The notes below the pieces were generated by a model, which was not told the origin of the DNA, searched no databases, and saw only the letters and a program-made list of their open reading frames with translations. A DNA stretch of 12,760 nucleotides from a virus: UHGV virus genome UHGV-0172607; one strand, written 5' to 3'. This document shows positions 5,752 to 7,149 of the stretch, piece by piece. The position numbers and the translations under genes are program-made. How positions within the stretch are numbered: the stretch's first letter is position 1; every line of letters begins with the position of its first letter.

Positions 5752-5793
5752 TATCACCATTAATATTTAATTAGTTCACTTTCTTTTAATTAT

Positions 5794-5823
5794 GGCGCGA
5801 TGCGTCAGGGGATTGCTCGCGCC
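5794..5823 (+). repeat. GC-rich stem-loop (GGCGCGA ... TCGCGCC, 16-nt loop) in the gam-downstream intergenic gap
   Basis: Perfect 7-bp inverted repeat at 5794-5800 and 5817-5823, not followed by a T-run; sits between an AT-rich stretch and the RBS of the next gene. Confidence 0.4.
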
Positions 5824-5849
5824 TGAAACAGATTACTGAGGAATAAAAA

Positions 5850-6389
5850 ATGGTTGATGCAAAAGTTCTGAACGGTGTCAGTACATTATTACGGGCTTAC
5901 GGACGTCTGACCTGTGGCGTTCTGGCGGAAAAAATGAATATGCCACCTTCCTCAATGGTGTATTTCCTGCGTGATGCGGTTGATGCCGGAGTTCTCACTG
6001 AATGCAACGGATTTTATGATGTTCCGCGCCCTCGTCCGACGCCTCCTGTAAGACGAAACGCAACGGAGCACCCCGCTGTTGATGATGCTCAATGGTGTGC
6101 GTTCCGCCGCTCTTTGCCCTGGCTGGAAGGCAATGCAATTCCGGCACTGGCAAAAGAATTTGCGACAGGCGTACTGACCTGCGAGTCGGTTTACATCGTT
6201 GCTGAAGTGGATGACGAGATGTGCAAACAGGGGATGCCCCGTTTTGTGATGGCGTATATCGATATCCGGCTGGGGCGCTTTATTTGTGGTTCCAGTGGCT
6301 GGAATATCACCGACCACGTCCTGCGCTATCTCATTCTTGATTATTCACCGGTTCCGGCGGAAACACAGGAAATCAGCGAGCATGATTAA
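5850..6389 (+). CDS. Hypothetical protein with N-terminal winged-helix-like segment, Pro-rich linker and Cys-containing C-terminal domain (179 aa)
   Basis: GAGGAA RBS, ATG at 5850. N-terminus LLRAYGRLTCGVLAEKMNMPPSSMVYFLRDAVDAGVL resembles a wHTH; linker PRPRPTPPVRR. Function unknown. Confidence 0.55.
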   Translation: MVDAKVLNGVSTLLRAYGRLTCGVLAEKMNMPPSSMVYFLRDAVDAGVLTECNGFYDVPRPRPTPPVRRNATEHPAVDDAQWCAFRRSLPWLEGNAIPALAKEFATGVLTCESVYIVAEVDDEMCKQGMPRFVMAYIDIRLGRFICGSSGWNITDHVLRYLILDYSPVPAETQEISEHD

Positions 6390-6564
6390 GTCAATTGGCT
6401 TTGTCCTGCTGGTTGGCACCTGTGGGAATGATGCCTGTGATGCCATTCCGGTAACGGAAAAAATCTGGCCCACAGAACAGGCATGTATGCAGGTGATGGA
6501 GCGCATACAAAAACGTTATCCCAGTGAAATCTTTTATTGCGAAGAGGTATTACGAAATGAATAA
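6382..6564 (+). CDS. Small Cys-containing protein with N-terminal signal-like hydrophobic segment, possible lipoprotein (60 aa)
   Basis: ATG at 6382 overlaps the upstream stop (ATGATTAA); AGGAAA about 10 nt upstream. N-terminus MIKSIGFVLLVGTCGNDAC; four Cys in total. The 6286 start in the track is an upstream extension. Confidence 0.45.
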   Translation: MIKSIGFVLLVGTCGNDACDAIPVTEKIWPTEQACMQVMERIQKRYPSEIFYCEEVLRNE

Positions 6565-6871
6565 ACCAGAGAATAAAGAAATGAAATTCACACCAGTTGA
6601 TATTGATGGCGTCATGGCTAATTTAAAGATGCTGGAACGTATGCACGATATCGTTAAATATGGTATTGAGCATGACCTCACCGCCAGAGAAGTCCGGAGC
6701 ATTATTAACCGTGAAATGAACCAGGTGGAAGCTGCCGTGGCGCTACAAAATGAAGCAGCCCGCGAGGAATACATTCGTCGCAGGCTGGGGCTATCAAATA
6801 AAGATATTCTTACGGATGCTCAGATGGCTGAGGCTTTTGATATTCATCAGGATCTTGGTCTAACAAACTGA
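6557..6871 (+). CDS. Hypothetical helical protein (104 aa)
   Basis: ATG at 6557 overlaps the upstream stop (ATGA) with AAGAGG upstream; the GTG at 6524 is an alternative start. AT-rich with rare codons; no recognisable motif. Confidence 0.5.
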   Translation: MNKPENKEMKFTPVDIDGVMANLKMLERMHDIVKYGIEHDLTAREVRSIINREMNQVEAAVALQNEAAREEYIRRRLGLSNKDILTDAQMAEAFDIHQDLGLTN

Positions 6872-7076
6872 TGGTTTCAGTGATTAGCTGCGATATTTGC
6901 AGGGCGGAATCATTCGTTGTTCTCAATACCGGAGCCTCTGCAGCTACGACTGCAGCGGATTTGAGGATTGTTTTTCCTTCCTCTGCGGTAATCAGCCCCT
7001 TTCTGACAAGGAGTATCAGCAACCTTGAGGCAATGGTATACCCTGCAACATCATAAGGTTGTTCACTGTTTTTCAT
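6810..7076 (-). CDS. Hypothetical opposite-strand protein (88 aa), convergent with and overlapping the upstream plus-strand gene
   Basis: Minus-strand ATG at 7076 preceded by AGAGGAAG with about 6-nt spacing. Balanced amino-acid composition (MKNSEQPYDVAGYTIASRLLILLVRKGLITAEEGKTIL...), unlike the Ser/Ala-rich plus-strand alternative 6871-7056. The track ORF 6810-7160 is trimmed to this internal ATG. Confidence 0.35.
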   Translation of the reverse strand: MKNSEQPYDVAGYTIASRLLILLVRKGLITAEEGKTILKSAAVVAAEAPVLRTTNDSALQISQLITETISLLDQDPDEYQKPQPSEHP

Positions 7077-7108
7077 AAAAAGCTTCCTCTGTTTAGTGAG
7101 TGGATTCT

Positions 7109-7137
7109 GGCGGTGTTGCCGCACCGCCCCCTTTTCT
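7109..7137 (+). terminator. Terminator-like hairpin (GGCGGTG-ttgccg-CACCGCC followed by CCCTTTTCT) just upstream of the gemA RBS
   Basis: Perfect 7-bp GC-rich stem, 6-nt loop, then a T-rich tract on the plus strand. Could be a partial terminator or attenuator within the early operon. Confidence 0.4.
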
Positions 7138-7149
7138 GGAGGTACGATA

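Follow-up and report, generated by a model that had tools for sequence, protein, structure and literature searches.

Positions 5752 to 7149 of UHGV virus genome UHGV-0172607 form a four-gene block that lies between gam and gemA of a Mu-type prophage. The stretch of 12,760 nucleotides that was analysed, called the window below, represents the left 12.7 kb of this integrated, Muvirus-like element. The block is almost certainly the distal semi-essential early region of the prophage, a zone of slot-by-slot shuffling in which a gene designated w13 occupies the slot of Mu gp13 and gp12 is absent. Known Mu-type genes are combined here in a new way, and public E. coli genomes already hold near-identical copies. 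Taken as a whole, the block is best explained, and we lean toward this explanation, as a Mu-type accessory region carrying early accessory genes, in which the product of the opposite-strand gene, gp15, would counter or regulate gp14. A previous reading made from the letters of the DNA alone, here called the sequence-only reading, had proposed an undescribed cargo module. That description does not hold, as three of the four genes are syntenic Mu orthologues and the slots of the region vary independently.

The block reveals no new kind of system. Most open reading frames (ORFs) of the Mu semi-essential region have gone without an assigned function for decades, even though Mu is a model phage. 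The comparison presented here favors the antisense gene 15 in a conflict between two public Mu annotations, describes genes 14 and 15 as a convergent pair whose members are inherited together, and diverge together, in at least seven lineages, and identifies a slot beside gemA that takes alternative antisense genes behind a conserved hairpin.

Gene content of the block

The features of the block are as follows.

5752 to 5849, plus strand: gam-gp11 spacer, 98 bp, with an AT-rich stretch, TTTTAATTATGG, a stem-loop (5794-5823) and a GAGGA ribosome-binding site (5838-5842)
5850 to 6389, plus strand: w11, Mu gp11 orthologue, 179 amino acids, with an N-terminal winged-helix-like domain and Gp11_C
6382 to 6564, plus strand: w13, 60 amino acids, with four invariant Cys residues and a hydrophobic N-terminus (phrog_16556, 1.4e-28)
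6557 to 6871, plus strand: w14, Mu gp14 orthologue, 104 amino acids (phrog_6075, 2.4e-42, residues 6-104)
6810 to 7076, minus strand: w15, Mu gp15 (Mup15) orthologue, 88 amino acids (phrog_8747, 6e-26)
6871 to 7056, plus strand: ORF of 61 amino acids, counterpart of "Mu_54", judged a shadow of w15
7077 to 7149, plus strand: gp15-gemA divergent junction, with a hairpin (7109-7128), a T-rich tail and the gemA GGAGG site (7138-7142)

The protein w11 is 88.6% identical to Mu gp11, matches phrog_1949 over its full length (7e-105), and scores 133.6 bits against the Pfam model Gp11_C (PF25754; cut-off 27, E = 3.3e-39) at residues 90 to 167. Identity between w14 and Mup14 is 70.7% over 99 amino acids, and w15 is 52.9% identical to Mup15 in a gap-free alignment that covers 87 of 88 residues. 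These three orthologues keep the order and orientation of Mu, and are joined by one small gene, w13, that has no Mu counterpart. The earlier statement that no ORF of the block has a recognisable family is therefore wrong: w11 matches Gp11_C at 3.3e-39, and all four ORFs match PHROG families full-length. The same reading had held that its proposal would fall if these genes were syntenic across Mu-type phages and had known housekeeping roles. Synteny was found for three of the four (gp11, gp14 and gp15), and a known housekeeping role for none.

The corresponding Mu region, Mup11 to Mup15 (NC_000929 6424-8162), shares with the window the gam and gemA flanks, the 98-bp spacer with its stem-loop, and the hairpin that precedes gemA. 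The two differ in that comparison with Mu genes finds no gp12 in the window block, in that the gp13 slot of the window holds an unrelated protein of 60 amino acids, and in that gp14 and gp15 have diverged far more than the genes that flank the block. The placing of the block in the semi-essential region, already proposed from the sequence, agrees with the literature on Mu, which describes the function of that region as largely uncharacterised (PMC3325207, PMC3820752, PMC8705779) and places the region itself within the long early Pe transcript (PMC3325207, PMC3820752). Published work on Mu gp11 to gp15 was searched, and an assigned function was not found.

Over positions 5200 to 7800, the nearest phage records are those of Yersinia phage Tongde, SfMu, D108 and Mu, with 82-88% identity. 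At least 80% of the same stretch is covered in 35 complete E. coli genomes, STEC388 being the best at 98.6%. Prophages of E. coli STEC388, PSS-15 and KFu019 in RefSeq, together with the IMG/VR contigs L021 and L022, are 98.3-98.6% identical to the window over this stretch, have identical gene calls, and differ from it by point differences only. The RefSeq calls in the STEC388 prophage coincide exactly with the four block genes, each one annotated as "hypothetical protein". In L021 and L022, identity of the gp15 protein is 100%.

Base composition sets the block apart less than the sequence-only reading had claimed. GC content is indeed lower over 6380-7100, at 44.5% compared to 50.9% for the whole window, but the described drop to 35-45% overstates its extent: values below 40% occur only at 6481-6590 and near 6791, and comparably low GC is seen at other gene junctions (3291-3371, 4561-4631, 5081-5161 and 5631-5761). 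The reported build-up of rare codons is confirmed for w14 and w15, where AGA, AGG, ATA and CTA together reach 4.8 and 6.8 per 100 codons, compared to 0-2.7 in other genes, on small counts of 5 and 6 codons. The plus-strand genes overlap by 8 nucleotides at both internal borders, the w11 stop with the w13 start (ATGATTAA) and the w13 stop with the w14 start (ATGAATAA). Such stop/start overlaps are a usual sign of translational coupling, and so point to it here.

Conserved borders and variable slots

The early operon has no same-strand intergenic gap longer than the spacer that opens the block, the remaining ones measuring 38 bp or less. The GC content of the spacer is 36.7%, and the GAGGA site lies 7 nucleotides upstream of the w11 ATG, so that the earlier description of a long AT-rich gap with a GC stem-loop and a strong ribosome-binding site is accurate in every part. 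The spacer has the identical length in Mu. An element within it, 5782-5830, is kept in Mu-like prophages of E. coli and Salmonella, even where Gam identity is down to 57%, and it is conserved whichever gene follows. The loop core of the stem-loop, GCGTCAGGGGA, is invariant. In the stem there is one compensatory change, C-G to U-A, with 89% of cells paired, which amounts to thin covariation support. An Rfam search of both strands of 5600-7300 returned zero matches. A leader peptide of 15 codons (MARCVRGLLAPETDY) over the left hairpin was considered and rejected; a 1-nucleotide indel in Salmonella breaks the frame, while the nucleotides are conserved. Because this indel disrupts the frame, the left element is regarded as non-coding.

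At the right border, the hairpin at 7109-7128 has the form GGCGGTG-N6-CACCGCC. It forms 8 pairs, with a folding energy of -16 kcal/mol (z = -2.4), carries the tail CCCTTTTCTG, and passes a terminator scan. The right stem is near-invariant across E. coli, D108 and Salmonella variants, and is present also beside unrelated antisense genes. It shows one compensatory change, U-A to C-G, with 98% of cells paired, again thin as covariation support. The hairpin is missing where a plus-strand gene abuts gemA, as in UMNF18, PhiR68_1, and the Sf102 and UMN129 classes. In roughly half of the loci of the phrog_585 type, an alternative inverted repeat takes its place, TCTCAT-N8-ATGAGA (for example, in the class ending TTTTCATATCTCATTCCTTAATATGAGAGGTGAGCAAATG). 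With this repeat replacing the GC hairpin, some hairpin seems to accompany every divergent junction between an antisense gene and gemA. The 7109-7128 hairpin is part of the gemA leader at such a junction, where it may serve as a partial attenuator, as a 5'-end structure of either transcript, or as a recombination joint. Judged from these comparisons, the left gap and both hairpins are conserved Mu-type backbone, and not marks of recent insertion.

That the hairpin is instead an intrinsic terminator, ending transcription of the block and leaving gemA and mor to a promoter of their own, is in our judgment doubtful. Its passing of the scan, with the energy and z-score given above, speaks for termination, as does a stem conserved with a compensatory change, and record AF083977 carries the annotation "semi-early promoter, PMID 9454718" for the corresponding Mu stretch. 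However, the T-tract is short and variable (TTTTCT in the window, TTTCC in Mu, TTCAT in STEC383), relatives with a plus-strand gene abutting gemA lack the hairpin altogether, and it goes with the antisense gene rather than with the operon end. The gene mor, with which the Pe early transcript of Mu ends, also lies downstream. That the hairpin stops the operon completely is doubted because the T-tract is weak and variable, because gemA and mor follow, and because the Mu stretch is annotated as a promoter. The sequence-only reading was right that a terminator-like hairpin ends the block; its function as a true terminator is doubtful, and the structure is better described as a conserved gemA leader.

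Two further candidates for this structure were set aside. A role of the right inverted repeat as an operator for gp15 is unlikely, since the repeat also stands beside unrelated antisense genes and persists after deletion of gp15. The likeness of GGCGGTG to the RfaH ops element was rejected because positions 7-8 differ.

Variability of the interval between gam and gemA was surveyed in ten annotated relatives and then in 80 IMG/VR loci found through gp11. These 80 loci show about 37 gene arrangements. DUF5420, gp12 and Sf102, a protein of 102 amino acids, are each present or absent independently. The gp13 slot holds a zinc-ribbon type, a w13 type, or neither. The interval ends in gp14 plus antisense gp15, in other plus-strand genes, or in an unrelated antisense gene of 131-134 amino acids that is phrog_585-like. 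The block genes thus change one slot at a time, and are not carried together as a single cassette. The suggestion that alignment to Mu-like relatives might reveal a variable cassette proved correct as to variability, but not as to movement as a unit.

The Mu orthologues are narrowly distributed. An exhaustive phmmer search for gp15 found five real representative clusters among 1.84 billion, with an adhesin match rejected as spurious; a word-indexed protein search found two clusters only. None was found in GTDB species-representative genomes. A mobile defence system would not be expected to show the distribution of gp11, gp14 and gp15, which are seen only in Mu-type phages of Enterobacterales.

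Searches for function gave a consistent picture. PADLOC-DB v2 returned no defence match for w11, w13 or w15, and only a chance-level match for w14 (E = 0.018, 12 bits). Among the alternative cassette proteins, only Sf102 matched a PADLOC model, also at chance level (E = 0.039). Across PADLOC, NCBIfam and Pfam, no functional family besides Gp11_C was found for the block or the alternative cassette proteins. Searches of w14, the gp15 profile and the gp11 profile against solved structures gave nothing below E = 0.3. A fold search with gp15 matched only generic helical bundles and the gp15 of Mu itself, and one with gp11 returned a winged-helix-like domain and nothing else, from a low-confidence model. 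The fold check proposed earlier for the block proteins yields a candidate winged-helix domain for gp11, on that low-confidence model, and a generic three-helix bundle for gp15, with no functional handle elsewhere.

These results bear on the proposal that the four genes were acquired horizontally as a single module, placed between gam and gemA and serving superinfection exclusion, defence or anti-defence. The region does differ between relatives, its GC content is reduced, and w14 and w15 are enriched in rare codons. An antisense gene is what one would expect of a moron expressed in the lysogen, homologues of w13 do move among unrelated temperate phages, and phage Fc02 offers a precedent in which overlapping early genes on opposite strands give exclusion (PMC9936078). 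We nevertheless regard the proposal as improbable. The genes gp11, gp14 and gp15 are ancestral Mu-type genes in Mu order and occur only in Mu-type elements of Enterobacterales, the independent variation of the slots contradicts any unitary version, no significant PADLOC family is present even among the alternative cassette proteins, and the border hairpins are conserved backbone.

Morons and hotspots of temperate phages, such as those of lambdoid phages and the defence loci of P2/P4, do resemble the block in showing presence, absence and replacement at a fixed position, in their lower GC, and in having one gene opposed to the surrounding operon. They differ in that no pair of promoter and terminator was found at the antisense gene, in that most block genes are co-directional with the operon, and in that the block has no known defence family and a lineage-restricted gp14/gp15. 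Of two features used to recognise a moron, replacement polymorphism is present, the slot holding gp15-like genes, a phrog_585-like gene, or nothing. A promoter and terminator of its own were not found for w15 by a crude consensus scan, a weak negative, and the nearest minus-strand terminator-like site (6482-6468) lies 330 nucleotides past the w15 stop.

Genes 14 and 15

The 3' ends of w14 and w15 converge and overlap by 62 nucleotides, as they do in Mu (7896-7957). In a phage collection, gp14 was found only in Mu-type phages. In the sample anchored on gp11, 25 loci bear gp14, and in 24 of these it is accompanied by a gp15-like antisense gene; gp15-like genes without gp14 number zero; these loci are phylogenetically non-independent. 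At least seven diverged types of gp14/gp15 pair can be distinguished. Mean pairwise identity is 36% for gp15, 52% for gp14, and 60% for gemA. The divergence of gp14 correlates with that of gp15 (Spearman 0.58) more strongly than either does with gemA (0.32 and 0.23). Compared to Mu, the ratio of nonsynonymous to synonymous substitution (dN/dS) is 0.36-0.37 for gp14 and gp15 (0.37 for gp14), as against 0.10-0.13 for gam, gp11 and gemA. Ratios of 0.36-0.37 indicate that both genes are under purifying selection, with proteins evolving about three times faster than those of their neighbours. Co-occurrence and correlated divergence of this kind fit two products that may interact.

One IMG/VR locus, of the class "CAGCATCTGGGCCTTACGAACTGATGTGTAAATTCAGGCGGTG" upstream of gemA, has the gp14 stop joined almost directly to the hairpin leader. 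It looks like a natural, clean deletion of gp15. Because gp14 is kept in this locus, gp14 can persist without gp15.

Two other loci show irregularities. In a Mu-like prophage contig from GCA_043057025.1 (L020, 4236-5444), the 3' end of the gp15 homologue is overlain by a transposase gene (Pfam Transposase_mut), which appears to be an insertion causing the aberrant C-terminus of protein P0005. Another Mu-like prophage, with the gp15 homologue P0004, has about 1.1 kb without a called gene in its semi-essential region (L016, 4520-5657).

A toxin-antitoxin-like or abortive-infection pair, in which w14 is toxic and w15 an antidote kept expressed in the lysogen, would account for strict co-occurrence, co-divergence, and the fast evolution of both genes; in addition, expression of the semi-essential region has been reported to kill the host beyond the effect of kil (PMC3325207). 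It is very unlikely in our view. The layout is convergent, not that of a co-directional bicistronic operon, and so atypical for type II systems; Pfam, NCBIfam and PADLOC gave zero significant toxin, antitoxin or PADLOC matches; the natural variant with a clean gp15 deletion retains gp14; and the pair is restricted to one phage lineage and one position.

The reality of gene 15 itself is a matter on which public Mu records conflict. NC_000929 has an antisense Mup15 (7896-8162, minus strand), and AF083977 instead has "Mu_54", of 55 amino acids, on the plus strand (7960-8127). In the window, w15 occupies a gap of 278 nucleotides that is otherwise non-coding, has a ribosome-binding site of its own (AGAGGAAG), and, unlike every other ORF on the minus strand of the operon, is not contained within a plus-strand gene. 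The third codon positions of the minus and plus frames coincide, and first- and second-position differences number 25 and 25. Because the third positions coincide and the other differences are equal, codon periodicity cannot separate the strands. The decision was therefore based on ORF conservation and amino acid-level scores in place of a codon-position test.

The minus-strand ORF is intact in all lineages examined, namely the window type, the FDAARGOS type, Mu/SfMu, the D108 type and Salmonella. The plus frame is open in the window and Mu types, and closed in Salmonella homologues. Scored on identical nucleotides, the minus frame has a dN/dS of 0.28 and a BLOSUM score of 123, compared to 0.45 and 76 for the plus frame; local alignment gives BLOSUM scores of 200 and 141, respectively. 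A good ribosome-binding site precedes the minus-strand ATG in every variant, and none is evident ahead of the plus-strand ATG at 6871. The AlphaFold2 (AF2) model of w15, from only six sequences, is a three-helix bundle with a predicted local distance difference test (pLDDT) score of 75.4. PHROG families exist for the minus-strand product, and for none of the plus-strand ORFs. Other long antisense genes occupy the same slot in relatives, including the unrelated genes of 131-134 amino acids that are phrog_585-like. By these sequence comparisons gp15 is very probably a gene and Mu_54 its shadow. The sequence-only reading had called w15 the only convincing opposite-strand ORF, and ORF conservation, dN/dS, predicted fold and PHROG membership all support it as a real gene.

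It is highly improbable that the 61-residue ORF is the real gene, TGATG-coupled to w14, and the opposite-strand ORF its shadow: AF083977 carries Mu_54 and omits gp15, the frame is open in the window and Mu types, and codon periodicity over shared third positions does not discriminate, but Salmonella homologues have this frame closed and the minus ORF is intact everywhere examined, the minus frame is better conserved by each score given above, the strong ribosome-binding site precedes the minus ATG only, the minus product has a confident AF2 fold from as few as six sequences, and the plus-strand ORF lacks a PHROG family in a slot where other lineages have unrelated long antisense genes.

In D108 (NC_013594, about 7853-8212, minus strand; L010 2719-3078), an unannotated ORF of 119 amino acids lies in the 377-nucleotide gap between gene 14 and gemA. 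It matches phrog_38610 full-length at 8e-83, and has phrog_32893 and the core motif in common with gp15. Because it shares these, D108 has a diverged, unannotated gp15. This core motif, K-G-x-I-T-x-E-E-G-x-x-I, gives recurrent weak matches to SHOCT-type domains (PF22746, PF20612) in three diverged members. All fall under the gathering score (12.6-16 compared to 24-27 bits) and serve as a lead only; SHOCT is defined as a C-terminal domain, and the gp15 motif is N-terminal.

In the explanation that we prefer, w11, w13 and w14 are predicted to be made early in lytic growth from the rightward Pe transcript, translationally coupled, and would be dispensable accessory or host-interaction proteins. 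The product of w11 would bind nucleic acid through a putative winged helix and carry a C-terminal domain specific to the lineage; that of w13 would be a small Cys protein, possibly exported or membrane-targeted. w14 and w15 would act as a single functional unit. Lying on the opposite strand, w15 would therefore be expressed chiefly while Pe is silent, whether in the lysogen or on either side of the early burst, and early transcription through it is predicted to counter it. We suggest only tentatively that w15 regulates or antagonises w14, or is its lysogen-expressed partner. A bolder version, which we consider unlikely, makes gp14/gp15 an unrecognised Mu-type antagonistic unit in which gp15, made mainly in the lysogen, neutralises or gates the early-expressed gp14 or gives the lysogen exclusion or defence, and in which the antisense slot beside gemA swaps lysogen-expressed cargo. 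The slot with its hairpin leader would then be a dedicated expression site, its swapped contents being gp15 types, phrog_585-like genes, or none.

The closest analogue is in the transposable Pseudomonas phage Fc02, where overlapping early genes on opposite strands (olg1 and gene 10) both give superinfection exclusion (PMC9936078). Like gp14/gp15, these overlap on opposite strands in the early region of a transposable phage, and one of the Fc02 genes is expressed in the lysogen. Unlike gp14/gp15, they lie beside the repressor and ner, not gemA, and in lacking any sequence relationship they are analogues, not homologues.

Several points weigh against the preferred explanation. Tight linkage and a shared recombination history may explain much of the gp14/gp15 pattern. 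In the deletion locus gp15 has been lost and gp14 kept, where a strict antidote model predicts harm. The updated Mu GenBank record AF083977 drops gp15 and annotates the plus-strand ORF instead. A consensus scan of the minus strand over 5600-7400, which is crude and thus a weak negative, detected no promoter of sigma-70 type for w15. For w13, w14 and w15, searches by fold and family offer no clue to function, and the predicted model of gp11 is of low confidence. Inspection by eye of the junction and the gemA 5' end likewise found no convincing -35/-10 pair for gp15.

Prophage setting and the genes w11 and w13

The Mu left-end sequence TGTATTGATTCAC begins at window position 56, and bases 1-55 appear to be host flank. 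Because host flank appears to precede the left end, the window represents an integrated prophage copy. After repressor c, the gene order is ner, transposase A, B, kil, small early genes, gam, the block, gemA, mor and endolysin. The neighbouring genes that bear on the block are these.

396 to 986, minus strand: repressor c
5227 to 5751, plus strand: gam, left flank (Pfam Phage_Mu_Gam, 1.8e-43; 92.5% identity to Mu Gam)
7150 to 7701, plus strand: gemA, right flank (Pfam GemA, 8.8e-33; 80% identity to Mu GemA)
7698 to 8147: mor, 149 amino acids (62% identity to Mu Mor, 32% to Mu C)

Pfam matches to both flanks confirm the earlier placement of the block between gam and gemA. Further downstream, at 7698-8829, the only Mor/C-family gene of the window is followed directly by a GH108-type endolysin gene, and the middle operon of Mu (gp18 through C) is not found between mor and lys in the window.

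The gp11 family is seen only in Mu-type elements of Enterobacterales. Its gene is the first after gam in the window, Mu and D108, and the second, behind DUF5420, in SfMu and Tongde.

The gp13 slot differs more deeply. Mu gp13, which has the same length of 60 amino acids, is a Cys-rich zinc-ribbon-like protein unrelated to w13; the two also differ in Cys pattern, and w13 falls in another PHROG (16556). Searches with w13 by tblastn against Mu, SfMu and Tongde at 1e-3 gave zero matches. Its invariant cysteines are C14, C19, C35 and C53. Inspection of the N-terminus by eye shows a hydrophobic stretch of about 10 residues and a possible cleavage site, CDA|I. A lipobox of the pattern [LVI][ASTVI][GAS]C was sought, the alternative being a signal peptide with an AXA-type cleavage site. 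By eye, V-G-T-C of w13 falls outside the pattern, and V-S-S-C of a Yersinia homologue falls inside it. From these features, export or membrane targeting of w13 is plausible; it is plausible rather than proven because the lipobox is imperfect (VGTC here, VSSC in the Yersinia homologue). The "small exported Cys protein" of the sequence-only reading is thus supported in its four invariant cysteines and hydrophobic N-terminus, with the export part remaining a plausible one.

In gemA, the 5' third (7150-7330) shows low third-position divergence between the window and Mu, with 1-3 differences per 10 codons in the first 60 codons and 4-9 beyond. One possible cause is a recombination boundary; another is an overlapping constraint, for example from a leftward gp15 promoter.

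Homologues of w13 occur in unrelated integrase-type temperate phages of Yersinia, Aeromonas and Hafnia, in one case between recT and xis. Two of them stand in early-left operons, at L115 2501-2686 (Aeromonas phage pAEv1818) and L116 2495-2665 (Yersinia phage vB_YenM_30.14); the neighbours are recT and xis in one phage, and genes for Lar, Pol III theta and a methyltransferase in the other. The four-Cys protein of w13 type is a widely shuffled early accessory gene product.

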